Positions 5,863 to 55,646 are shown, numbered from the stretch's first letter. The stretch is 64,000 nucleotides of DNA from Bacteriovoracaceae bacterium (GCA_048270185.1 JBLWTJ010000001.1:1664001-1728000), one strand, 5' to 3'. A program made the numbers and translations. The notes: generated from the letters alone by a model not told the origin.

Positions 5863-6896
5863 ATCTTCTCTAATGCCTTACTTGTGGCCGTTGAAATATT
5901 AAGCCTAGGACCAAGTTCATAAGCTTCAAAACTCTTATCCTTGGCATGCTTTGCATATGCTTTAAACTGAGTCTTATTTAACTCTAAGATATAATTTGTA
6001 ATCTTATACTTAGTGATCGTCGTCTTATACGATACTAATTCATCTAAGGCGACACTATTCTTTAAGTAAGGATATTGTTTTAGATCATTATCTTCACTTT
6101 CAATAATAAAAGTTGGACATTCAACCTGACCACTTAACCATTCAGTATCTTCTTTCATATACCCGAGAATACTATTCTTATTCTTAACAATGACTCGAAG
6201 TAGAGAGAGATCATACGACTTTTTAACCTTTTTAACCGGAATCTCAGGGTACTCAAGAGGCGCCCCACTCTTAGCAGCTACACATTTCTTCTTCATTGGA
6301 CAAGTAAGACAATTTGCAGCGCGGGCCTGGCAGTAGATACGGCCGAGATCCATTAAGGCTTCATTTATAGCACGAGGAGAATGATTATAGATTTCTTTAA
6401 AATCACCTTCTACAAATTTATTCTTAATAAGCTTTTGAAGCTTAGCTCCTTTTGCATGTTGAATACCGTAGAGACGAGAGATGACTCTTTCAATATTGGC
6501 ATCGATTGATAGAGCTTGTTGGTCTTGTCCAATACTTAAAATAGCATTGGCCGTGTATTCACCGATTCCAGAGATTGTCACAAGCTCTTCATAGCGACGT
6601 GGTATCTTTCCATTGAAGTTTTCAACGATATCGATAGCTGCCTTTCTTAAATTTCTTGCACGCCGGTAGTAACCAAGACCTTTCCATGCCACACAAATCT
6701 CATCTTCAGTTGAATTAGCAAGGGCCTTAATATTAGGATAAATTTTCAAGAAACGATCAAAATGATTTTGAACTGTTCCAACAGTTGTTTGTTGCAACAT
6801 TATTTCAGACACAAGTGTCTTATAAACAGTACGATTTTTTCGCCATGGAAGATTATTGTGGGTCTCTTTTGACCACTTCAGTAAATTGGAATACAT
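5856..6896 (-). CDS. mutY: A/G-specific adenine glycosylase
   Basis: LPWR, VSEIMLQQT, WKGLGYYRRARNL, GIGEYTA, C-x6-C-x2-C-x5-C Fe-S motif. Confidence 0.95.
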   Translation of the reverse strand: MYSNLLKWSKETHNNLPWRKNRTVYKTLVSEIMLQQTTVGTVQNHFDRFLKIYPNIKALANSTEDEICVAWKGLGYYRRARNLRKAAIDIVENFNGKIPRRYEELVTISGIGEYTANAILSIGQDQQALSIDANIERVISRLYGIQHAKGAKLQKLIKNKFVEGDFKEIYNHSPRAINEALMDLGRIYCQARAANCLTCPMKKKCVAAKSGAPLEYPEIPVKKVKKSYDLSLLRVIVKNKNSILGYMKEDTEWLSGQVECPTFIIESEDNDLKQYPYLKNSVALDELVSYKTTITKYKITNYILELNKTQFKAYAKHAKDKSFEAYELGPRLNISTATSKALEKIC

Positions 6897-6921
6897 GAGA
6901 TATTTTTATCTTTTTTGGTAA

Positions 6922-7689
6922 TTATTTGCAAGATGCTTTTAGCGTATCTGCTAGTTTTAATAGGTCATCAGGATAGAATGGCTTTGTTCCAACGCCATGA
7001 ATCTTCGCCTTGATATTACTTAGAAAATCCATGAGTTCCCCCTTGGCTTCATCAATATCAGTAAGAACAAAGAGATGTTTTGTATCAGAGTTCTTAACCC
7101 AGCGGATGATTTTTTGAGTATTATTTCCGCCTTTTGTTTGGCACAAATAATTATCATTTTTAATTTCTCTAATTGAAGAATCAAAAGACTTAATTGTAAT
7201 AGGGCATCCATAGCTGAGTCTTGTGACGAAACTTTTACGATAGCAAGTATCTCCAGTTTTTGACCAATCAGAATTTCTTAGTGAAGCTGAAGTATCAACC
7301 CAAACTTCATACTTTGTCGTCTTTTTCTTTTTAACTTTTTTTGCCTTTCCACAAAAGATATCAAAGTAGGCACCAGTACAACGAATCATATCTGAATCAA
7401 TTGTATTTTCAACTTTAGGCTTACCTGAAGGTACACCATATTCTTGCTCAATATAGTCTTTCCCAGACTTGCCTTCCACATAACCGGTTTGTGGATCGAA
7501 GCAGCCATCGCCCATTGGAATACAGTCATCATTTTCAGCGACTGCTTGAAATGTTTTTGTCTTAAAGTTCAGAAGATCTATTAGAGCAGATTTCTTCGCA
7601 GGAGAGATAAAGATAAACTCCACCGTATCCGGTAAAGCATATACCGACGTGGAAATAATTATGAATGCTAAAATCATTCTTTTAAGCAA
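6922..7689 (-). CDS. Exported Cys-containing hypothetical protein (possible degenerate vWA-like domain)
   Basis: Signal peptide; VWVDTSASL and LFVLTD resemble MIDAS segments. Confidence 0.5.
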   Translation of the reverse strand: MLKRMILAFIIISTSVYALPDTVEFIFISPAKKSALIDLLNFKTKTFQAVAENDDCIPMGDGCFDPQTGYVEGKSGKDYIEQEYGVPSGKPKVENTIDSDMIRCTGAYFDIFCGKAKKVKKKKTTKYEVWVDTSASLRNSDWSKTGDTCYRKSFVTRLSYGCPITIKSFDSSIREIKNDNYLCQTKGGNNTQKIIRWVKNSDTKHLFVLTDIDEAKGELMDFLSNIKAKIHGVGTKPFYPDDLLKLADTLKASCK

Positions 7690-8326
7690 TCATTCCTCTT
7701 TGTCTAAAGTACCTAAACAAATCATTGCCTAGATCTACAATTAAATCTCTCGCATCAATGTCGAGACTAAGAAAGTCTGCAACATAAGCTTTTTGTCTTG
7801 GAGTAAGTTGCGCCATTCGCTCTTTAAGTTGTTCCTCATTACTAGTATCAACCATAAAAGGCATCGTGCGTGTTTTACCACCTACTTTAATTGTTGGGTT
7901 TGCATTAATTTGTGCATTCCCTGTAGTGCCTGTTTTAATCGTGTCAACAAGAGCATCTTCAAATGTACTTGTCGATGTCGTTTCAGCTACAGGCTTTTGT
8001 TCAGGTGCAGGTTGCTGTTGTGGTGCTGCTGCATCTTTCTTTTCATCAGCTTTATAGAATTTAACAAGTCTTATAAAGTGATCAGTAAAGTGCTCTTCGA
8101 CAAAATCAATCATTTCATGAAGCGGAATCTCTAAATGAGCAGTTATTTTGGCAACTACTTGAGGGTTTATCTCAGTTGTCTTCATTGAAAGAAAGCGTGA
8201 TACCGTGGAAACACCAAGCCCAGTCGCTTCCGCAAGATCTTTTTGTGTCATTGGTCCACGAACCTGCATGTATTTCCTAATAATCCCTAGGTAATCATCC
8301 AATTTGTCTTTGTTAAATTCGGCCAT
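7682..8326 (-). CDS. XRE-family HTH transcriptional regulator
   Basis: MTQKDLAEATGLGVSTVSRFL; start chosen by AGGAG spacing. Confidence 0.85.
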   Translation of the reverse strand: MAEFNKDKLDDYLGIIRKYMQVRGPMTQKDLAEATGLGVSTVSRFLSMKTTEINPQVVAKITAHLEIPLHEMIDFVEEHFTDHFIRLVKFYKADEKKDAAAPQQQPAPEQKPVAETTSTSTFEDALVDTIKTGTTGNAQINANPTIKVGGKTRTMPFMVDTSNEEQLKERMAQLTPRQKAYVADFLSLDIDARDLIVDLGNDLFRYFRQRGMIA

Positions 8327-8547
8327 CGCCATCTCCTTGCATGTTGAAATACCTGCAACTGCCTGATATCTTGTCTAACTAAATTGCAGCCTGAAAAAAA
8401 ATGGCTCCAAAAGTCCCTAATATCATTATCGGATTTAATTTTTATTTCTTTATGCAATTTTATTGCTTGACGCAATAGGTCAAGAATGGTTATTATTGCA
8501 GTGTGGATGAACGAATCCACAAATTAAGCAAGGCTTGGGGGGATCAC

Positions 8548-22671: not shown

Positions 22672-23444
22672 AGTAGTAATCCATATGTATAAAATAAATA
22701 AATAGCAATAATTTCGCCGATGAAGATAAAGATCGTCATGGCATAGAATATTCCCGTTGCACTCTGTGTACTTCTCATACAAACAAGTTTCCAACCAAAA
22801 ACACTCATAGCAAATATAACAAGGTAACCCCAAATATCGCGCATGATAACCATCAGCCAATTAAAAGCGTAACCACCTCCAAGCTGCGTGCCTTCTGCTA
22901 GATAAGGCCCAAGCTTTGCATGCTCAAAAATTGTCCAAACTAGCTTGATTCCAATTAAGGACCACATTGCAAGAGTCGCTCTTTTAAGAGGAACTTCAGA
23001 TAGTTTTGGTGTAACAAGATACCAGTGACCAAGGATCATGGCATATGTAATAGCACCAAGGTAGTAAACCGAAGATGCAATATAGAGATAGTTAATAAGA
23101 TTCTTATCCTGGAATAAGTAGAGAACCCAAAAACCTAGTATTGCTGGAATCGCGTAAAGTACCCAAAGAGCAGAGTTTTTCTCATCGTAGTGGTTATGTA
23201 ATTGATGATGAAATAGTATTGAGATTGTACTGACGTAAATAAGAATTGCTTCTAAATCCGTTGCACTGTGACCTGTAATAATATGAGTAATGGCCGCTAG
23301 AAATAAACTCACTAAACAAGTTGTCGATAGTAGTTTTTGAAAACCGCCACCAGTCATCTTTGAATTGGCAACAGGAGCAAAAGTAAAAACACCAAAGCCT
23401 ACGGCCAGGAAGAAGTACTTTGCGATTTCAAATGTATTACTCAT
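22668..23444 (-). CDS. Polytopic membrane protein, hypothetical
   Basis: About 8 TM helices, MILGHWYL and STQSATGIFY segments. Confidence 0.7.
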   Translation of the reverse strand: MSNTFEIAKYFFLAVGFGVFTFAPVANSKMTGGGFQKLLSTTCLVSLFLAAITHIITGHSATDLEAILIYVSTISILFHHQLHNHYDEKNSALWVLYAIPAILGFWVLYLFQDKNLINYLYIASSVYYLGAITYAMILGHWYLVTPKLSEVPLKRATLAMWSLIGIKLVWTIFEHAKLGPYLAEGTQLGGGYAFNWLMVIMRDIWGYLVIFAMSVFGWKLVCMRSTQSATGIFYAMTIFIFIGEIIAIYLFYTYGLLL

Positions 23445-46665: not shown

Positions 46666-46689
46666 AAAAAGAATGGTCGGAGCGAGAGG
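46666..46689. repeat. att site, distal copy (duplicated tRNA-Pro 3' end)
   Basis: AAAAAGAATGGTCGGAGCGAGAGG identical to 55562-55585. Confidence 0.95.
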
Positions 46690-46828
46690 TTTCTACTACA
46701 AAAGTCGAAACTTACTATCCAACTGACTGAATTAACATTAATAACAAATAGTTATAAAGGTTTCCTAAGTTTTGGTATTTCACTTTTATTCATTTTATCT
46801 CACTACTTTTCACTGTATTGGCTGGGAT

Positions 46829-47827
46829 TTAGAACTCCCTAGCCCTTGCTTTTATAAGTGCAGGTGTAAAATCATGCTCATCAGTGTATGCCAAAAGTTT
46901 TTTCTTACCGTTCTTCTCACCAATTAATAATCTCTTAGTACCAGCAATACCTAAGCCAAGATTCTCACGAGGCAAGACATAGCCTCTATATATATTAACA
47001 CCATGAGCCTGACTTACAGAGGACTCCGAATGCCAATCAATTTTAAACTTTTTATCAGTAGCACCTCTTAAAGTAGGAAACGAGAGGGCTAAAAAACCAC
47101 AATAAGAGATTTGTTTCAAATCATCACAATTGCATTTCCTAATATCGCTTAAAAATTGTGGTATTACTTCGAAATTTGAAATTTTTGAAATATCTGATTC
47201 GTTCATTCCCTCAAAAAATGATTGTACAAAAGCAGAATATTTCAAACTTTCAAGACTACAATTTGAATAATTCTTTAGATAATCAAAAATTTCATCTTCA
47301 TTTTCCTTTAAAAACTTTTCAAGTACTTCTTGCTTTGGGCCAGAAGGAACAAAATTTAGAATATCAAGTTCTTTGCTACAATACAGCTTATCGTCCCCAC
47401 AAGTTGAACAATCATTTTTCAATAATCTTCGGTCTTCTATATCTACGACTATTGGAGACTTTCTAGTATAAAGTATATTTTGCAAAGCTAAGCTAACTGT
47501 AGTCAATCCAGCAGAAGTAGTGTGGCCATCAGGGAAACTGCTAAAATGTTTTTCAAGCTCTTCCTCGGGGCATAAGCTACTTTTTTTCATTGGCTTAAAA
47601 AGAATATTTGATCCCATTTTATTTACTGAGCTAACAAACACCTTGCCCTTTGCGTCACTTTGCAATATTGGATAAATTGAATACGGAACTAATATAATTA
47701 TAAAATGCTTCAGTTGAGTTGCAAGACTTTCTAGTTTGAATAAAAAATCCACGACATCACTAATATTAGTACGATATAGAACTAAATCTCTCTCAATGAA
47801 TGGGGAAATAAAGACTTCAAAACGCAC
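46829..47827 (-). CDS. Unknown protein, candidate effector of the upstream ATPase
   Basis: 7 nt downstream of the ATPase gene; CSTC motif; C-terminal R-L-L...YTDEH resembles RelE/BECR-type RNases (weak). Confidence 0.6.
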   Translation of the reverse strand: MRFEVFISPFIERDLVLYRTNISDVVDFLFKLESLATQLKHFIIILVPYSIYPILQSDAKGKVFVSSVNKMGSNILFKPMKKSSLCPEEELEKHFSSFPDGHTTSAGLTTVSLALQNILYTRKSPIVVDIEDRRLLKNDCSTCGDDKLYCSKELDILNFVPSGPKQEVLEKFLKENEDEIFDYLKNYSNCSLESLKYSAFVQSFFEGMNESDISKISNFEVIPQFLSDIRKCNCDDLKQISYCGFLALSFPTLRGATDKKFKIDWHSESSVSQAHGVNIYRGYVLPRENLGLGIAGTKRLLIGEKNGKKKLLAYTDEHDFTPALIKARAREF

Positions 47828-47834
47828 AACTAGA

Positions 47835-49325
47835 TTACACTTCTCCAGCTTCTATTTTTTCAAGTCGAAGCTTTGTTAGGTCATCTATTAGCTTATCTCT
47901 TTCATCCATAAAACCATCAGGAGGATTAATTATATATCCCATGTTGTCGTGTTCAATTTTTCGAGCAACAGCTTTTCCATCAATTCTCTCAACCCATAGC
48001 ATTTTTACTTCTTCAAATAGTTGAGGATATTTCACATTAAAATATACTAATTTACTCAATAAGCTTTCACTGTGAGTTTCGATTAGTACAACTTTTCCAA
48101 GTAAAGACATCTGCCCAAAAAAGTCAGCTAACTTAGACTGTGCACTTGGATGAAGGTGGATTTCAGGTTCATCAACAATACAAGTTTCAGACCTGTCAGA
48201 ACTAAGTACTCTGAAAATCACCGGTAAGATTTGACTTAAACCGTATCCCATATTGTTAATAGAAAGCTCTTTACCATCTAAAACTAATATAATTTCAGAA
48301 GTCAAACCTGATGCTATTGATCTGATATCAATCGTTTTTGCAATTTTAAAGAAGTTAACCCAATAATTTAAACTTTCCTCAAGTGTTTGCTGTACGATTT
48401 CATTTTTAGAAAAATCAAAATAACTATCTATTTTGTTATTTTTCTTCCTAATATAATCTTCTAGTGGATTATTAAATCCACCATCTGAATAGATACGATG
48501 AGGCTCGCCTCTAAATGGAGGAATGACAATGATTTTGTCTACTTCTATCTCAGGGATAAAATCAACATCAATACTATTATGAAGCTGAACATAGTCTCCA
48601 AATTTAGGCTCATTAATCTTTCTTAGATTATTAGCGACTACCCCTTTTTTAGTAAAAGCTTTTTTATATTCTTCACTTAAGCAGTCCTCAAGACTTTCTA
48701 TATTTAAATCAAAACTAAGAAGCATAAAATTTTTGAATTTTACATTTCTAACGTCCGAAAACTCAACAACACTACTGAATACACCGCTTGGCCTTACATT
48801 TTTTCCAGCTTTTGCTAATAAGTTAGTGATCATGTAATCAATAAACCTTCCCTCTGAGTAATCAGCAAAATGTACAAACTTTTCTGCTTTTATCTTCCAC
48901 TCACCTGTTGCAGTATTCATTTCTGCTTCAATTGAATGTTCTGGGCTTGCTCTATAAAACATCCTCTTCAGTAAAATATATTCAAAAGTATCTTTACCGT
49001 AATCTTCTCTATGTAGGAAAAATGTTAGCTCTGCATAACCTTGGTCAGATTCAAAAGATAAAAATACTTCCTCATCAGCTATATTGTTTAAAAGTTCCGA
49101 AGGCTTACCTATTTCTAAGTAAGGCCCATTCACTTTTAACATCGGGACTTCTGAGCCTAAATAGTTTTTAGTTTCATTATATGACTGAAGAATTATGAGT
49201 ATTGCTTGATATACAGAGCTCTTACCTGAACTGTTAACCCCTGACAGTAGAGTTAGCTTACTCAATTCTATATATTCAATATCTCCGAAAGACTTAAAGT
49301 TTTTTATTCCTATTTTTCTTAACAT
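47835..49325 (-). CDS. ABC-type AAA ATPase (AAA_15/AAA_21, DUF3696-like tail)
   Basis: IKNFKSF, GVNSSGKSS, MGYGLSQILP, IVDEPEIHLHPSAQ, IETHSE, terminal PPDGFMD. Confidence 0.9.
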   Translation of the reverse strand: MLRKIGIKNFKSFGDIEYIELSKLTLLSGVNSSGKSSVYQAILIILQSYNETKNYLGSEVPMLKVNGPYLEIGKPSELLNNIADEEVFLSFESDQGYAELTFFLHREDYGKDTFEYILLKRMFYRASPEHSIEAEMNTATGEWKIKAEKFVHFADYSEGRFIDYMITNLLAKAGKNVRPSGVFSSVVEFSDVRNVKFKNFMLLSFDLNIESLEDCLSEEYKKAFTKKGVVANNLRKINEPKFGDYVQLHNSIDVDFIPEIEVDKIIVIPPFRGEPHRIYSDGGFNNPLEDYIRKKNNKIDSYFDFSKNEIVQQTLEESLNYWVNFFKIAKTIDIRSIASGLTSEIILVLDGKELSINNMGYGLSQILPVIFRVLSSDRSETCIVDEPEIHLHPSAQSKLADFFGQMSLLGKVVLIETHSESLLSKLVYFNVKYPQLFEEVKMLWVERIDGKAVARKIEHDNMGYIINPPDGFMDERDKLIDDLTKLRLEKIEAGEV

Positions 49326-49340
49326 TACATGTAGCCCAAT

Positions 49341-49369
49341 AAAAAAAGCCCTTTATGATAAAGGGCTTT
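49341..49369 (-). terminator. Intrinsic terminator between the microprotein gene and the ATPase gene
   Basis: AAAGCCCTTTAT/ATAAAGGGCTTT inverted repeat with a 7-U tail on the minus strand. Confidence 0.85.
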
Positions 49370-49406
49370 ATATAATTCTTAATAATTTAGCTTAAATAGT
49401 TTATAG

Positions 49407-49523
49407 TTATTCGTCCACTTCGAGATCAGAAAATTCAGTTTCAGAGAATTCAAGATTTAGCTCACTTAAATCAAAATCAATCTCCATGATGTCAATTTGA
49501 TCGTAAATAGAGTTCACATTCAT
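49407..49523 (-). CDS. 38-aa highly acidic microprotein (not in ORF track)
   Basis: GGAGG RBS 5 nt before ATG; MNVNSIYDQIDIMEIDFDLSELNLEFSETEFSDLEVDE; own promoter and terminator. Confidence 0.75.
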   Translation of the reverse strand: MNVNSIYDQIDIMEIDFDLSELNLEFSETEFSDLEVDE

Positions 49524-49559
49524 ATATTCCTCCAAGAATTATTATATTAACCAATTATC

Positions 49560-49586
49560 TTATCGACATATTGGTAAAAACTTTTA
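49560..49586 (-). promoter_or_regulatory. Sigma-28 (FliA)-like promoter
   Basis: Minus strand TAAA-N15-GTCGATAA versus consensus TAAA-N15-GCCGATAA. Confidence 0.65.
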
Positions 49587-49747
49587 GCCATAAATATACA
49601 CTTTGTAAATATATCTACGCTATACTTATTATAAATTTTACACCATTATATTCGAATTTCGAAGAAAAACAACTTTGCCTAGAGAAATCTTTATTTAATA
49701 AAACTTAATCACTGTTTTAACTATAAGCATAAGTTATTGATATTTAA

Positions 49748-49975
49748 CTAATCTCGAGTAAATAAGTCAGTAACCTCTACATCAAAGGCTACTGCTAGCC
49801 TATAAACAGACGAGAGGGAAGGACTATGGCCACCACTCTCTATTTTCTGATAATGCCTATAATTAAAGCCATACTGCACCATGTCCTCTTGTGTAAGACC
49901 TCTCGCCCTTCTAAGTTTCTTAATCTTAGAAGCTAATTTATAGATAAATTCTTCATAATTCTCACATGATGCCAT
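49748..49975 (-). CDS. Small XRE-family HTH regulator (controller-protein-like)
   Basis: IKKLRRARGLTQEDM...YQKIESG.HSPSL. Confidence 0.9.
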   Translation of the reverse strand: MASCENYEEFIYKLASKIKKLRRARGLTQEDMVQYGFNYRHYQKIESGGHSPSLSSVYRLAVAFDVEVTDLFTRD

Positions 49976-50008
49976 TCAAATATTATTGAATTCACGTACA
50001 AATTACAC

Positions 50009-50042
50009 CACGTACTATATAGTTCGTGTTCAGTGTTATAAT
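50009..50042 (+). promoter_or_regulatory. Palindromic operator plus extended -10 promoter
   Basis: CACGTACTATATAGTTCGTG (near-perfect 20-bp palindrome) then TGTTATAAT. Confidence 0.6.
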
Positions 50043-50062
50043 CACCTTAAGAGGTGAAATTT

Positions 50063-51661
50063 ATGAAATTTAATAACTATCTTTGGGATTTATATAAAAG
50101 CAATTCAAAGTCACTCGAGAATGATAAAGAGCTGCTATTTTCAAATGCGAGCTTTGAAGATGCGAATATCTACTTTACTTGCTTTGAAGCCGACTCTAAC
50201 TATGAGCCATTAAGTAAACCAAAAGAAATTGAGTGCCTAGTAGATTTAGTTCGAGTTATCAAAGATTTTGCAAAAGACGAAGAAGCTACAAGCATAGACG
50301 AAGCTGAAGAAATCTTCCGAGTTATTGCAGATGACAGGATTGACCTCTATTCAGGAGATGACTTCTATCTTCCTGATGAAGATAAAGATAAAAAATATAT
50401 TAGCTATTTGGGCGGTGGAATCGAGCATGAAAGATTCTATCAAACAGACATAATTTCTAATATTGAACATATAACACTAGGGCTACATCAAGCTTATCCG
50501 CAGTTCTTTTTTCCATATCTTTTTGTAAGAGAATTCAATCGACTTAATGAACTGGCCAATTTTTTTGATATCAAACTTCCATCGCTTCCAAAAAAGAGAC
50601 ATAAAAGAGACAGGGCATTCTACTATCTTGAAGTTAATCGAATATTTCAAGATCTAAGGGCCAAGCTAAAATTATCACCTACGGAGTTTAATTTCTTTAT
50701 ATATGACTTTGGATTAAAAAACTTAGAATCACTTAACACACATAGTAAAACCAAAGAAAATTTACCGAATCCTTCTAGGGCATGGCTCATTATTGGATAT
50801 GGTACAGGTATAGATGCTGAATTTTTAAATAATCTAAATGAAGAAACTGTAACACAATGGCAAGGAAAGATAGAAATGCGTGTAGGTGATATTGTACTTA
50901 TGTACCAACGTAATCCAAAAAGTAGCCTCCACTCTATTTGGCGAGTTGTTGAATCTGGCTTTAATGATCCATACGCATTCCACTATGCTCAAACAAAGAT
51001 TGGGTATCCAATTGAAATACCAAAGATTACATTTAAAGAAATAAGAGAAAATGAAATACTAGGCTTAATGCCAATAGTTAAGGCCTCATTTCAGGGTGCG
51101 ACAGGATCAACATTTTCTCTTAGCGAGTATAATGAAGTATTGAAATTAATTAATTCAAAAAATCCAAATATTAGAAACCTACCTCACTTACCAATTGTTG
51201 AAGAACTTAAGAATATAGAGATTTCTAACGAGAGAGATGTAGAAATAAACTTACTTGAGCCACTTCTTGAAAAGCTTGGTTTCGCGAATAATGAATGGAT
51301 CAGGCAATTTCCAGTAAGAATGGGAAGAGGTCAAAGAAACTATCCTGACTACGTTTATGGCGGTGACCCTACTCATGGCGAAGAAACAGCAAAGGCCTTA
51401 ATTGAATGTAAATATCACATAGATAGAGATGCAACTCTTACAGATACTTTTAAGCAAGCAAAATCTTACGCTCTGAGACTTAGAGCAAAGCTTTTTGCAT
51501 TAGCAGACAAGCAAGGTATTTGGATATTCAGATATGTTAATGATGACTTTAATCGAGATGTATTTGAATATATGAGCTGGGTTGAACTTCTTCATCATGA
51601 AAAACTACATGAGTTATCCTTGTTTATCGGAAAAGAGTTTATTGAGGATCATTGTCCTTAG
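50063..51661 (+). CDS. Putative restriction endonuclease: EVE/PUA-like domain + HsdR_N-like PD-(D/E)xK domain
   Basis: QWQG...MRVGDIVLMY; ERDVE..LLEPLL, YPDY, IECK, QAKSYA. Confidence 0.75.
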   Translation: MKFNNYLWDLYKSNSKSLENDKELLFSNASFEDANIYFTCFEADSNYEPLSKPKEIECLVDLVRVIKDFAKDEEATSIDEAEEIFRVIADDRIDLYSGDDFYLPDEDKDKKYISYLGGGIEHERFYQTDIISNIEHITLGLHQAYPQFFFPYLFVREFNRLNELANFFDIKLPSLPKKRHKRDRAFYYLEVNRIFQDLRAKLKLSPTEFNFFIYDFGLKNLESLNTHSKTKENLPNPSRAWLIIGYGTGIDAEFLNNLNEETVTQWQGKIEMRVGDIVLMYQRNPKSSLHSIWRVVESGFNDPYAFHYAQTKIGYPIEIPKITFKEIRENEILGLMPIVKASFQGATGSTFSLSEYNEVLKLINSKNPNIRNLPHLPIVEELKNIEISNERDVEINLLEPLLEKLGFANNEWIRQFPVRMGRGQRNYPDYVYGGDPTHGEETAKALIECKYHIDRDATLTDTFKQAKSYALRLRAKLFALADKQGIWIFRYVNDDFNRDVFEYMSWVELLHHEKLHELSLFIGKEFIEDHCP

Positions 51662-52148
51662 TATCTACAAAATGAATGACAATTTCATCATTTTCCTCTT
51701 CTTCACTAATACTATCGAAAGATGAGCCATCACTCTTATCTCCCCATTTCTCAGGTGAGCGTCTACTTAATCGGTATGCTGATGCTTTCCAGTCAGGCTT
51801 CACAAGATATGAAGATACGACAGGATATCCCAACTCATCTAGTATTGGTTCGCCATTATCATCTAGCTTATACGACTTAGGTATTCCAAATGCCGCTTGG
51901 TTGATAACACCTAAGTGCCTTACTTCATCCTCTGCAATAGCAAGCCGTATCGCGTCCGATAATTTCACACATCTAGGGTTTGCATCTTCACTTTTAGCAT
52001 CTCTCAACCAACGATATAAAGTAGACTTACTAACTCCAACCAGTGCCGCGGCTGTTTCGATAAATGCTCCATGCTTTATTGCTGCATATATTTCAGAAAT
52101 CAGTTTATCTGTTAGTTTTGGTGATGAGTTCTTAGGGTATCTAGCCAT
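51639..52148 (-). CDS. Terminase-small-subunit-like HTH protein
   Basis: AAALVGVSKSTLYRW HTH, DWKASAYRLSRRSPEKWG, terminal IVIHFVD strand. Confidence 0.55.
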   Translation of the reverse strand: MARYPKNSSPKLTDKLISEIYAAIKHGAFIETAAALVGVSKSTLYRWLRDAKSEDANPRCVKLSDAIRLAIAEDEVRHLGVINQAAFGIPKSYKLDDNGEPILDELGYPVVSSYLVKPDWKASAYRLSRRSPEKWGDKSDGSSFDSISEEEENDEIVIHFVDTKDNDPQ

Positions 52149-52261
52149 TTATATTCTCCTATATAGAGATTCTAGCAATGAGCCTATTGCCTATAAATAC
52201 ACCATGTGTTTTAACTATTTACGAATATGTATAAGTATCTATAGAAATTGAGAATTAAATA

Positions 52262-52855
52262 ATGCAAGAAGAATCATCAATCGATCAAATACCTCGAAAA
52301 CTACATAAAGAACTCATGCGAGTACATAACACAGCTCTTCTTCTAAGATACGACAAAGAAATACTATACCTTGAGAATGAATTGGAAATATCAAACCAGC
52401 TTCTAAAGACAATAAATAAGTCTGTTGGTGAAAAGTCTAATGTAAACTTAGGTAAATCAATAGGAGATAGTCTAATTAGAGGGTCATACCTAAACACTAA
52501 CTTTAATAAAGTTCAAATTAAAAAGTCTATAGAACAGGATAAAAAAGAACTAAAATCTGGAATGAAGAACATAAAAGACTATATTGAAAAACTTCACACT
52601 GATAAAGAAGTTGGACTCTTTTATCAAGAAATTAAAAACTCTAAGACTAGTAAGCCAGTTGACTTACTCTGTACAAGAATTATATTCTTACTTTATCAAG
52701 AACTTAAAAGTGCAAACAAGGTCCATAGCTATCTTTTAAAACATACTGCTATACTTGAAGACTTATCCCCTATTCCTTCAATTAGATCCATTTCTAATCG
52801 AGTCAGAAACTATAAGAAAAAGTATCATACATATTTTGAATCAATACACGATTGA
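52262..52855 (+). CDS. Hypothetical protein
   Basis: 197-aa ORF upstream of the xis-rep-xis-int run. Confidence 0.6.
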   Translation: MQEESSIDQIPRKLHKELMRVHNTALLLRYDKEILYLENELEISNQLLKTINKSVGEKSNVNLGKSIGDSLIRGSYLNTNFNKVQIKKSIEQDKKELKSGMKNIKDYIEKLHTDKEVGLFYQEIKNSKTSKPVDLLCTRIIFLLYQELKSANKVHSYLLKHTAILEDLSPIPSIRSISNRVRNYKKKYHTYFESIHD

Positions 52856-52974
52856 CAATTTTTACACAAAATACTCATCAAACGTGAATATCCACTCTCC
52901 TTAATAAAAAGTTACTGTGAATACAGTTTTACATAATCGTAAACAGTAACAACTATAAACAGGGAGAATAATCA

Positions 52975-53151
52975 GTGAAATCAAATGACGACTATCTAAT
53001 GACCACCAAAGAGCTTGCCAAGAAGCTAAGCGTAAAGGTTTCCTATATTAGATATCTGAAGATGAATAATCGAATTCCTTATATCAAAATTGGTAAACTG
53101 ATACGTTACTCAAGCAAAGAAATAGCCGTATGGCTCAATAACCAAAACTAG
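52975..53151 (+). CDS. Excisionase/AlpA-like HTH protein (58 aa, not in ORF track)
   Basis: GGGAG RBS, GTG start; YLMTTKELAKKLSVKVSYIRYLKMNNRIPYIKIGKLIRYSSKEIAVWL. Confidence 0.85.
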   Translation: MKSNDDYLMTTKELAKKLSVKVSYIRYLKMNNRIPYIKIGKLIRYSSKEIAVWLNNQN

Positions 53152-53207
53152 AAACTAAACAACATGCAAAAAAGAACAATGCTCGAATTTCGAGTAAAGG
53201 AGTCACT

Positions 53208-54155
53208 ATGTCAATTTCTCTAAAAAATATAAGAGAAAACAAAAAACAATCTGAAGATACAGTACTTCCCTTATTAAGTGGGAAAGTAGAATCAATTTGT
53301 ATAAATCCAAGTGAAATTAATACAGGAATAGATAGAATAGAAGGAAACCTAACCCATCTCAGTATAGCCGACATTAGAAAGCTTAGAGAAGTAGACAAGT
53401 GCCCTGTAGAGAAGCATATCAAAGGCCTAGGCTACATACGTTCGTTTAAATTAAAGTTAATCACACTTAATCTCTGCTATATGAAACAGACACATATATT
53501 GCCATATAAGTTTTACTTTAATCTTAATCACTCAAATGACATAAATATACAGTTACAAGATTTAATCAACCACTTCAAAACAGCCCTAGATAAATCAAGA
53601 ATTGTTAGAGTCGACTTGAATGCTGACTTTAAGTCGTCAATTCAAAACATGTTAATTAACCTACAGGTGAAAAATAAACAGATGTCAAAAGAATATAGGT
53701 GCACGCATAACAATATTGAAGGTAAATCTTGGGGAAAAGATGATGAAATCATAAGAATATATACATATGAAAATAATGAAGATGAGCCTATTACTCGTCT
53801 TGAAGTTCAAATCAGGAATAAGAAGCTCCCAAGAGATAGAAGTTTTTCAAATATACTTAAGTGGTTAAAGACTAATACTTTCTTTGAATCCATACAATTT
53901 TGGAACATCAATGGAATCAACAGTACTCCATTTAAAAAAATTAAACAGCTTGATTTTTATAGGTACTACGTAAAGTTTTTTAATCTTATAAATCTACAAA
54001 CACTTGGTTTTACAGAAGCAAGAAGTAGGTCAAAAGAACCAAAGAACTTCATGAGGAGTCTTCGGAGACACTTAAAAATAGAAAAATCTGACATCTCATT
54101 AATGAAAATATTTCGCCATCAGGTGACAAGTCAGCTGGGATCAAAGTATGAATAA
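53208..54155 (+). CDS. Putative replication initiator, Rep_trans-like
   Basis: RVDLNAD, IRIY and RLEVQIR in Rep_trans order; AAGGAG RBS. Confidence 0.6.
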   Translation: MSISLKNIRENKKQSEDTVLPLLSGKVESICINPSEINTGIDRIEGNLTHLSIADIRKLREVDKCPVEKHIKGLGYIRSFKLKLITLNLCYMKQTHILPYKFYFNLNHSNDINIQLQDLINHFKTALDKSRIVRVDLNADFKSSIQNMLINLQVKNKQMSKEYRCTHNNIEGKSWGKDDEIIRIYTYENNEDEPITRLEVQIRNKKLPRDRSFSNILKWLKTNTFFESIQFWNINGINSTPFKKIKQLDFYRYYVKFFNLINLQTLGFTEARSRSKEPKNFMRSLRRHLKIEKSDISLMKIFRHQVTSQLGSKYE

Positions 54156-54336
54156 TCAGCTCTTTAACAAACGAATATGGAAAATAAAAGATGTAGCTGA
54201 GTATCTACAATGTTCAGTAGGAACTATCTACAACAAGACGAGTAAAGGTGAAATACCATTCTTTAAGAAAGGAAAATCTTTATACTTTTCCCCAGAAGAA
54301 ATTGAAAACTGGGTACAGGAGGGAAACCTTGAATAA
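54148..54336 (+). CDS. Excisionase-like HTH protein
   Basis: IKDVAEYLQCSVGTIY...GEIPFFKKGKSLYF..EEIENW; overlaps both rep and int. Confidence 0.88.
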   Translation: MNNQLFNKRIWKIKDVAEYLQCSVGTIYNKTSKGEIPFFKKGKSLYFSPEEIENWVQEGNLE

Positions 54337-55477
54337 GTATAAAAAACTCAAACATCATACTGGAATTAGAAAAGTATTATCTAGCGGTAACTATGAAGCT
54401 TCAAAAAAGATTAAAGGAAAGACTTACTCTCAAACCTTTAAGACTATAAGACAAGCTCAGCACTGGAGAAACACTTATAACCCTTTCTTAAGCTTTACAC
54501 CTGAGACTAACGGCATGAAGTTCAAGGAGCTATGGGAAAAATATGAGGAAGCCTACTTCCCAGAAATTGAAAAATCATCGCAAGGAATCAAGAAACAAAG
54601 GATTAAAGTTTTCAAACACCATTTAGATGATATCTCTGTATATGAAGTAACTCCTGAGTATATAGATCATATAGTTAAGCTAGAGAAAAAACTTGCTATC
54701 AGTAACCCAAATAGTAAAAGGTGTAACTTCAAAAGTAGTCTAGATGAAGTTAAGGCTGCATTTAACTGGTATCGTGAAAACTATGACTATCAATTCCATA
54801 GTCCAGTATTAAAAAGGCATTACACTATTGGAATTATCAGAAAAACTGAGAAAAGAGAGAGAATCTTAACTAAGGATCAAGTTGTTAGATTCTTTAAAGC
54901 GATAGACAATCCTTTATTTCAAGATTTTGCAATTATTCAATTCTTTTGTGCTTCGCGATTTGGAGAAGTAGCAGGAATACAAATAAAAAACATAGACTTT
55001 GAAACAGATTCTCTATTAATAAAGGAAGTTGTAGTTGAAGATCAAAGTAAAAAGTTTCTAGAACTAAAACCATACCCTAAAAATGGGCACGCTAGAGTTG
55101 TAGCAATTACTTCAGCTATTTTCAAAGCTGCTATTCAGAGAAGAATGGCTGATAGAGTAAAAGGATCAAACTACTTAATACATAGAAATGGCAATCCCAT
55201 GAGCTATCGTTCAGTTCAATTCCAATATAACAAAGCTTTAAAAAAGGCTGGATTACACCCAGAGTTTAGCTCTACACATATCTTAAGATATTCAATGGCT
55301 TCAGAGTCAAGACGTATAATGGGCTCTCTAGATGCTGCACAGGCTATTACTGGCCACAAGTCGATTAAGATGATTGAACACTATGCAAGAGTACCAACTA
55401 TGCTTCAAGGTGAGACTATTTCTAAAGTGAGTTTTGAAATTGAAAATACTTGGAAAAGCATACAAAAGCCTAATTAA
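54329..55477 (+). CDS. Tyrosine recombinase/integrase
   Basis: Catalytic R (SRFGE), HILR, GH, HY; TTG start after GGAGG. Confidence 0.95.
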   Translation: MNKYKKLKHHTGIRKVLSSGNYEASKKIKGKTYSQTFKTIRQAQHWRNTYNPFLSFTPETNGMKFKELWEKYEEAYFPEIEKSSQGIKKQRIKVFKHHLDDISVYEVTPEYIDHIVKLEKKLAISNPNSKRCNFKSSLDEVKAAFNWYRENYDYQFHSPVLKRHYTIGIIRKTEKRERILTKDQVVRFFKAIDNPLFQDFAIIQFFCASRFGEVAGIQIKNIDFETDSLLIKEVVVEDQSKKFLELKPYPKNGHARVVAITSAIFKAAIQRRMADRVKGSNYLIHRNGNPMSYRSVQFQYNKALKKAGLHPEFSSTHILRYSMASESRRIMGSLDAAQAITGHKSIKMIEHYARVPTMLQGETISKVSFEIENTWKSIQKPN

Positions 55478-55561
55478 GCTGGGAAAGGCTGGGATTATAA
55501 AATAAATATCAAAGGAGAATTTAGTAAACTATTAAAAACACTGAAGAAATTAAAGTTTATA

Positions 55562-55585
55562 AAAAAGAATGGTCGGAGCGAGAGG
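55562..55585. repeat. att site overlapping the tRNA-Pro 3' end
   Basis: Identical to 46666-46689. Confidence 0.95.
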
Positions 55586-55646
55586 ATTTGAACCTCCGAC
55601 CCCTTGCTCCCAAAGCAAGTGCGCTACCAAACTGCGCTACGCTCCG
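55570..55646 (-). tRNA. tRNA-Pro (TGG)
   Basis: CGGAGCGTAGCGCAGTTTGGTAGCGCACTTGCTTTGGGAGCAAGGGGTCGGAGGTTCAAATCCTCTCGCTCCGACCA, 77 nt with encoded CCA. Confidence 0.97.

Follow-up and report, generated by a model that had tools for sequence, protein, structure and literature searches.

What is a 38-codon open reading frame, equipped with a ribosome-binding site and a terminator of its own, doing directly in front of a defence-type ATPase operon, and is it the encoded peptide or the arrangement around it that matters? We examined this question in a 64,000-nucleotide stretch of DNA, which is called the window throughout. An earlier note on this DNA had described a unit made of a promoter-like site, a strong Shine-Dalgarno sequence, a short acidic ORF and a terminator. 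All of the elements named beforehand were found within the 64-kb window, every one of them on the minus strand, and the unit is compact. The elements and the two genes that follow them are:

49645 to 49672, minus strand: sigma-70-like alternative promoter TTGTTT-N16-TATAAT, with a −35 element matching at 3 of 6 positions
49560 to 49586, minus strand: sigma-28-like motif TAAA-N15-GTCGATAA, its −10 element ending 36 nt ahead of the ATG of the small ORF
49529 to 49533, minus strand: Shine-Dalgarno sequence GGAGG, 5 nt ahead of the ATG at 49523
49407 to 49523, minus strand: 38-codon ORF with its TAA stop, encoding an acidic peptide of net charge −13
49341 to 49369, minus strand: intrinsic terminator with an 11-bp stem, a 3-nt loop and U7; with the whole leader folded, the stem pairs at probability 1.0
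47835 to 49325, minus strand: 496-aa ABC-type ATPase (AAA_15/AAA_21 and DUF3696), NsnB-like by Pfam and PADLOC
46829 to 47827, minus strand: 332-aa partner protein of no known family, candidate effector, beginning 7 nt past the ATPase stop

The coding part of the small ORF runs from 49523 to 49410 on the minus strand and is followed by the stop codon at 49409-49407. Translation gives the peptide MNVNSIYDQIDIMEIDFDLSELNLEFSETEFSDLEVDE, which contains six aspartates and seven glutamates, no lysine, arginine or histidine, and an EFSETEFSDLE repeat. Its acidic composition had thus been described correctly.

The terminator begins 37 nt past the stop codon of the small ORF, after an AT-rich spacer. 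Its stem spans 49369-49345, and the run of seven T ends at 49341, which leaves 15 nt to the ATG of the ATPase at 49325. The hairpin energy is −13.2 kcal/mol (z = −3.2), and none of 200 shuffled sequences folds equally well, so that the claim of a strong terminator 15 nt ahead of the ATPase start holds. Two other terminators in the window precede the next gene on the same strand, by 16 and 45 nt. By itself, then, close spacing between terminator and gene does not set this site apart in the genome. The 15 nt behind the terminator are too short for a promoter, and the operon must consequently be expressed by read-through or from a start inside the hairpin. A sigma-70-like pair, TTAAGA-16-TATCAT, is found at 49382-49355 on the minus strand, with its −10 element within the hairpin loop. 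Judged by its sequence, this pair could be the ATPase's own start site. Read-through, which the earlier note had suggested for the ATPase, is the simplest route, there being no room for a promoter behind the terminator. A minimal start-stop ORF (ATG TAA) at 49325-49330 on the minus strand overlaps the ATPase start codon (ATGTAATG).

In its domains the ATPase is built like NsnB: an ABC-type ATPase part of the AAA_15 family is followed at the C-terminus by DUF3696. Pfam matched AAA_15 at 5.7e-28, AAA_21 at 5.5e-20 and DUF3696 at 2.5e-5 (24.9 bits, cut-off 22). The best PADLOC model was NsnB (7e-56), followed by HEC-03B, PDC-M55A and AriA (1.4e-27). A search at E up to 1e-20 gave 741 relatives, of which the nearest is 40% identical, and about 55 relatives align over their full length at 29-40% identity. 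These are mostly metagenomic, and the named ones come from one Bdellovibrio and one Oligoflexales genome. Plasmid and phage collections hold only distant relatives, which are at most 34% identical over part of the protein. The motif DEPEIHLH (window residues 385-392, including the Walker B DE) is invariant in all 52 sequences of our ATPase alignment (A1). NsnB of S. silvestris, by contrast, is reported to have EN at the Walker B position (PMC12065111). The subfamily found here may be catalytically unlike canonical NsnB, to judge from this residue pair.

In the same source, the canonical Menshen system is NsnA-NsnB-NsnC with nsnA upstream of nsnB; NsnA is a ParB-DUF262 protein, and BECR-type RNase domains are described for NsnC (PMC12065111). 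For membership of Menshen we looked for an NsnA with ParB-DUF262 and ParBDB and for an NsnC with an inactive PIN-like N-terminus and a nuclease or BECR-type effector. The present locus is like Menshen in its NsnB architecture and in the second gene directly after the ATPase, which is in the position of NsnC. It differs in that the 38-codon ORF and the terminator fill the slot upstream of the ATPase, where NsnA stands in Menshen, and in that the 332-aa partner matches no NsnC model. No match to NsnA or DUF262 was found in the neighbouring proteins (16 searched by Pfam, 14 by PADLOC).

The partner protein has no match in Pfam, PADLOC, PHROGs or NCBIfam. A PDB profile search gave nothing at E up to 1, and a word-index search returned the protein itself alone. 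Its AF2 model, built on a two-sequence alignment, has a pLDDT of 45.8 and is unusable. The Atlas look-alikes of the partner are clusters of ~290-aa proteins (scores 0.92 and 0.91), in which 15% and 60% of the members, respectively, carry a YoeB toxin domain. A Pfam search of the partner itself gave no match to a toxin domain, even at E up to 10. As a lead only, the YoeB look-alikes would fit the BECR-type RNase domains that NsnC is reported to have (PMC12065111). We regard the ATPase and its partner as a candidate anti-phage module.

We then compared the layout with that of related loci. A scan of one genome per species with the 52-sequence ATPase alignment gave at least 79 loci. Among the matches listed there is one close relative of the ATPase, 37% identical, in B. 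bacteriovorus strain kdesi (locus L001). Its features are:

6855 to 6926, strand not given: small ORF of 23 codons, ATG at 6855, stop at 6924-6926, with the Shine-Dalgarno region AAGGAGGT
6961 to 6979, strand not given: hairpin of −13.4 kcal/mol with U9
7001 to 8482, strand not given: ATPase with a GTG start at 7001, 13 nt past the U-tract

Directly after this ATPase comes a gene for a 341-aa protein that is homologous to the partner (28% identity, E 2e-30). It is the single relative that phmmer found with the partner over all ORFs of the 79 loci. Residues common to the two proteins cluster C-terminally (IDWH-ES, KR-L-G and LAY---HDF).

The spacing within the two cassettes is close throughout. 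The gap between GGAGG and ATG is 5 nt in the window and 4 nt in L001, the distance from stop codon to hairpin is 37 vs 34 nt, the hairpins have −13.2 kcal/mol with U7 vs −13.4 kcal/mol with U9, and the U-tract lies 15 vs 13 nt ahead of the ATPase start. The ORFs themselves differ in length, with 38 codons in the window and 23 in L001. The L001 peptide, MNNKAKNTNDENTTQPLDSAEKK, has a net charge of 0 and no similarity to the 38-aa peptide. Neither the TTAAGA-16-TATCAT pair nor the minimal start-stop ORF has a counterpart in L001.

Among the 64 listed DUF3696 loci that include the N-terminus of the ATPase, L001 alone has a short ORF led by a Shine-Dalgarno sequence and followed by a terminator at the ATPase start. 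The cassette therefore goes with this ATPase subfamily. One further locus (L010) was considered and rejected, the terminator there belonging to an upstream aceE-like gene. That the small ORF belongs with the ATPase module, as had been proposed, is borne out by the recurrence of the layout before the ATPase-partner operon of L001. The prediction that the unit would be conserved upstream of homologous ATPases stood for the layout, in L001 as the only close relative listed, and failed for the peptide, for which there was no similarity. On this comparison of two loci, it looks like the layout, and not the acidic peptide, is the conserved part, and selection would be keeping the layout rather than the peptide sequence.

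Is the small ORF translated? GGAGG occurs 30 times in the window, counting the two strands. Three of these 30 lie 4-10 nt ahead of an ATG-led ORF of at least 30 aa (both strands, 128 kb); the small ORF is among the three, and so is a genuine gene of 282 aa. We also calculated a codon log-likelihood score, built on 29 long ORFs of the window, which largely mirrors amino-acid composition. The small ORF has a score of 0.233 per codon, compared with 0.221 ± 0.157 in stretches of equal length from real genes. Stop-free stretches in wrong frames have −0.288 ± 0.191, and none of 311 attains the score of the small ORF; these controls are alternative frames of genes, not intergenic DNA. The ORF of L001 has a score of 0.304 vs 0.124 ± 0.109 in the real genes of its locus, with a table made from six ORFs, and none of 129 wrong-frame stretches there attains it. 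A predicted-protein collection contains an identical 38-aa protein (P0002), and the small ORF, unannotated according to the earlier note, has thus been picked by at least one gene caller.

These observations bear on the alternative that the ORF is untranslated, or that its translation is irrelevant, the segment being a 5' untranslated leader or a non-coding RNA in which the frame and the Shine-Dalgarno sequence occur by chance. For such a leader speak the lack of a peptide homologue in any collection searched (see below) and the roughly 5% chance of a 38-codon open frame in AT-rich DNA, which is a rough estimate from base composition; the comparison also covers two loci. Against it, both loci have a perfect Shine-Dalgarno sequence and ATG at the correct spacing, the combination of GGAGG, ATG and ORF is found only three times in 128 kb, and the codon scores match those of real genes in the window and in L001. 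A structured RNA does not emerge either, as tandem repeats are absent (Tandem Repeats Finder, 49300-49760, minimum score 30: 0 arrays) and all Rfam families stay below their gathering scores. We consider an untranslated leader decidedly unlikely, and the small ORF is probably translated.

If it is translated, the peptide could itself be the functional product. We searched for its relatives extensively. A word-index search of 5.8 billion clusters, with the 42-aa TTG-start form of the frame as the query, returned the peptide itself alone. An exhaustive HMMER search (phmmer) of 1.84 billion representatives returned the peptide itself and one repeat protein of 1460 aa (P0124, E 2.3e-5), which aligns through many repeats at a weak 26-32% identity each; we judged this match to be compositional and rejected it as a relative. 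The best tblastn match of the peptide in the 79 fetched loci has an E of 0.65, and none is near an ATPase. No match was found in phage and plasmid collections (low-complexity filter on), the Atlas search gave no usable match, and Pfam, PHROGs, NCBIfam and PADLOC assign the peptide to no family. The 38-aa peptide is an orphan, with relatives in none of the collections searched. Its single-sequence model has a pLDDT of 65 and no secondary structure. Complex predictions that paired the peptide with ATPase and partner gave a score of 0.00 in two runs made without controls, and carry no weight for or against an interaction.

The peptide might nevertheless act in trans and modulate the ATPase-partner pair or restrain it in the manner of an antitoxin, with the terminator ensuring that it is in excess. 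The locus would then mirror, with a protein in the upstream place, the promoter-antitoxin-terminator-toxin order of type III toxin-antitoxin systems. This corresponds to the proposal of the earlier note, minus DNA mimicry. The strong Shine-Dalgarno sequence, the ATG and the real-gene codon usage fit this explanation, and coding-like codon usage suits a functional peptide just as well as a translated leader. By layout the upstream product exceeds the downstream ones, an inhibitor produced in excess is possible, and the layout recurs in L001. The flanking proteins are 28-37% identical between the two loci, so a partner of 23-38 aa could have diverged beyond recognition. The YoeB domain in 15-60% of the members of the partner's Atlas look-alikes, a lead only, would agree with a toxin to be restrained. 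Against a trans-acting peptide stand the change in length from 38 to 23 aa and in charge from −13 to 0 between the window and L001, the lack of relatives among both the 1.84 billion representatives and the 5.8 billion clusters, the model without secondary structure, and the toxin domain that Pfam does not confirm in the partner at E up to 10. That length and charge are both entirely different in the two loci speaks against any biochemical role being conserved, DNA mimicry especially. We regard a trans-acting peptide as possible and, on balance, doubtful.

The module is carried by an island of 8.9 kb (46666-55588), which is integrated at a tRNA-Pro gene and bordered by a 27-nt direct repeat whose copies are identical at 26 of 27 positions. 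The features of the island outside the cassette are:

46666 to 46692, no strand: left copy of the 27-nt direct repeat; the right copy, 55562-55588, overlaps the 3' end of tRNA-Pro
49748 to 49975, minus strand: 75-aa XRE-type HTH protein, a likely regulator, upstream of the small ORF on the same strand
51639 to 52148, minus strand: 169-aa small-terminase-like ORF (phrog_4102, 5.7e-19)
52975 to 53151, strand not given: AlpA-like HTH_17 gene (Pfam)
54248 to 55477, strand not given: integrase
55570 to 55646, minus strand: tRNA-Pro, its 3' end overlapped by the right repeat copy

A 191-aa ORF on the plus strand (51676-52251) overlaps the 169-aa ORF and matches nothing. Since the minus-strand ORF matches a PHROG, it is probably the real gene. 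A 535-aa protein of the island matches phrog_37753 and has no match in the phage collection. The GC content is 31% at 48-50 kb and at 52-54 kb vs about 37% elsewhere. An island with bounding repeats, an integrase, phage-type genes and low GC makes the module the cargo of a satellite-like mobile element, and in appearance the island is a phage satellite or else an integrative element of small size. In L001 (5453-6491 region), the module adjoins tRNA-Gln and a truncated, frame-broken integrase; this is a decayed island in which short ORF, terminator, ATPase and partner are all retained. Both modules are thus in tRNA-linked islands near integrase genes.

In such a setting, the small ORF could simply mark a separate small gene or small RNA of the island whose function has nothing to do with the ATPase. 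It might belong to the element's accessory genes, or encode an acidic anti-restriction or anti-repressor peptide that serves the element. Phage-satellite-type elements carry many orphan small genes, and this island is satellite-like in its integrase, AlpA-like HTH, small-terminase-like ORF and XRE repressor. Promoter-like sites and a terminator come with the ORF itself, and the order of terminator and then gene is also found elsewhere in the window. An independent gene does not account for the same arrangement and spacing before the operon of L001, in another island and at another tRNA, where the integrase has decayed; this persistence indicates that cassette and operon have been kept as a unit. 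Nor does it provide the ATPase with a promoter, for which there is no space behind the terminator. We consider it unlikely that the small ORF is unrelated to the operon.

From which site would the cassette be transcribed? The full sigma-28-like motif at 49586-49560 on the minus strand is TAAAAGTTTTTACCAATATGTCGATAA, and TAAA-N15-GTCGATAA is present there as the earlier note had reported. The pattern TAAA-N15-GYCGATAA has this one exact match in the 64 kb on both strands, with 0.02 expected and matches in 2 of 100 shuffles. With one mismatch allowed, there are four matches in the window vs 0.9 expected. Two further one-mismatch matches of the sigma-28 type are at 8426-8452 (minus strand) and 23304-23330 (plus strand); the former is intergenic, and an HTH_26/HTH_3 gene (8332-7682) follows about 95 nt downstream. 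The site at 49586-49560 fits the classic sigma-28 consensus with one mismatch. A Pfam scan of 54 window ORFs revealed neither fliA nor any flagellar gene.

The attack-phase consensus of B. bacteriovorus is TTAAG-N16-CCGATA, found in 92 of 140 attack-phase promoters (PMC3627812). The window site is three mismatches away from this consensus. The consensus has 27 matches in the window at up to two mismatches, and the 49586-49560 site is not included. In L001, TTCAG-N15-CCGATC is found 26 nt ahead of the ORF. It is one of four matches with N15 and up to two mismatches, where 3.5 are expected, which is the chance level; no match was found there with N16 spacing. A pattern picked after sight of the site made it seem rarer, and that test is biased. 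A sigma-28 reading of the window site is plausible from its sequence, with a counterpart in L001 at chance level.

The sigma-70-like alternative contains the palindrome TTCGAAATTCGAA (49651-49663) inside its spacer. A near-copy of this palindrome is found at 53182-53194, just upstream of a 315-aa gene. Searched as an operator, the palindrome TTCGAAATTCGA has 12 matches at up to two mismatches vs 12.2 expected in shuffles, which is no enrichment. By its position, TTCGAAATTCGAA may be the operator of the neighbouring XRE-type HTH protein of the island.

The sigma-28-like site gives rise to a bolder explanation. A predator could have taken a Menshen-like pair and swapped the DNA-sensing NsnA subunit for a tiny, fast-evolving peptide brake made in excess. 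A FliA-type promoter and a leaky terminator would then arm the defence only in free-swimming cells, the free-swimming stage being, in this explanation, the only one in which phages can reach the cell. We consider this combination improbable. If it were true, the locus would unite three parts under a life-stage switch and would parallel type III toxin-antitoxin loci in layout, with a protein in the upstream place. Should the sigma-28 reading hold, it would be a first hint of predatory bacteria tying phage defence to the attack phase. A full-text literature search for defence systems in Bdellovibrio gave none on topic by title or abstract among the matches listed.

The leader RNA was examined for signs that termination is regulated. 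The terminator has a pair probability of 1.0 in both full leaders, of the window and of L001. No antiterminator or alternative structure appeared in the MFE, centroid and partial-transcript folds of the two leaders, and in partial transcripts the 5' arm of the hairpin pairs only weakly. The whole-leader folds are no stabler than shuffles (z = −0.28 and −1.22 for the two leaders). No regulatory codon runs were found in the leader. Rfam gave 18 matches to the leader at E up to 10, each under its gathering score, and 11 of these sub-threshold matches cover the hairpin, which probably accounts for them. With no antiterminator, codon runs or Rfam leader, there is no sign of regulated rather than fixed termination.

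We prefer to read the unit as a leader cassette that is translated, with a terminator restricting how much transcription passes on into a potentially toxic operon. We put this reading at a probability of about 0.4, on a comparison of two loci. Transcription would start 30-115 nt upstream of the ORF, from the sigma-28-like or the sigma-70-like site. The latter carries the palindrome, and control by the neighbouring HTH protein would be possible there. The small ORF would be translated efficiently, and the majority of transcripts would stop at the terminator 37 nt past its stop codon. The terminator would be leaky; a minority of transcripts would read through into the ATPase, 15 nt past the U-tract, and read-through would be the route by which the operon is expressed. 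The short transcript and the peptide would be produced in excess. In this way, the cassette would hold the potentially toxic ATPase-effector pair low and tie it to the condition to which the promoter responds.

If the cassette gates the operon in this manner, a toxic defence module would be kept silent by means that standard annotation misses, as the short ORF and the terminator are both invisible to protein-family searches. The module would then be a two-gene offshoot of Menshen without the NsnA sensor, which raises the question of what senses infection. A full-text literature search for leader peptides and terminators in defence operons gave none on topic by title. The conservation of the layout is the new point, and what stands so far is a small orphan ORF supported by a single comparison.

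How does the cassette compare with known systems? The earlier note had proposed a DNA mimic and had drawn an analogy to PARIS, in which ATPase-based defence responds to such mimics. The peptide is like Ocr and ArdA in being very acidic, 13 of its 38 residues being aspartate or glutamate, and the ATPase is like PARIS in also matching AriA models at 1.4e-27. Known DNA mimics are far larger than 38 aa, and they differ from this peptide, which has no predicted fold. The mimic in PARIS comes from the phage and acts as the trigger; the defence locus does not encode it. The comparison speaks against the DNA-mimic proposal, as the model lacks secondary structure and the acidity is absent in the L001 counterpart (net charge 0); a conserved DNA-mimic role is not supported. 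The PARIS analogy reduces to a shared ATPase superfamily, with NsnB at 7e-56 vs AriA at 1.4e-27 in PADLOC.

The attenuators of the trp, phe and his operons have a short translated ORF and then a terminator before the first structural gene, and the sequence of their peptides is unconserved. The cassette is similar in that an ORF led by a Shine-Dalgarno sequence is located 30-40 nt upstream of a terminator that directly precedes a structural gene, in the window and in L001. It differs from the attenuators in having no competing antiterminator helix, no regulatory codon run and no Rfam leader above its gathering score.

Type III toxin-antitoxin systems such as ToxIN consist of a promoter, an upstream element, an intrinsic terminator and a toxic gene, and the upstream product is made in excess. 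The cassette has the same order of elements, with the upstream product favoured. Its upstream element is an ORF led by a Shine-Dalgarno sequence in place of tandem RNA repeats, and downstream of it are an ABC-type ATPase and its partner, not a ToxN-type RNase. By analogy, the cassette would act like a leader/terminator unit that dispenses with the antiterminator of an attenuator. In layout it is similar to type III toxin-antitoxin loci, with a short ORF where the repeats would be.
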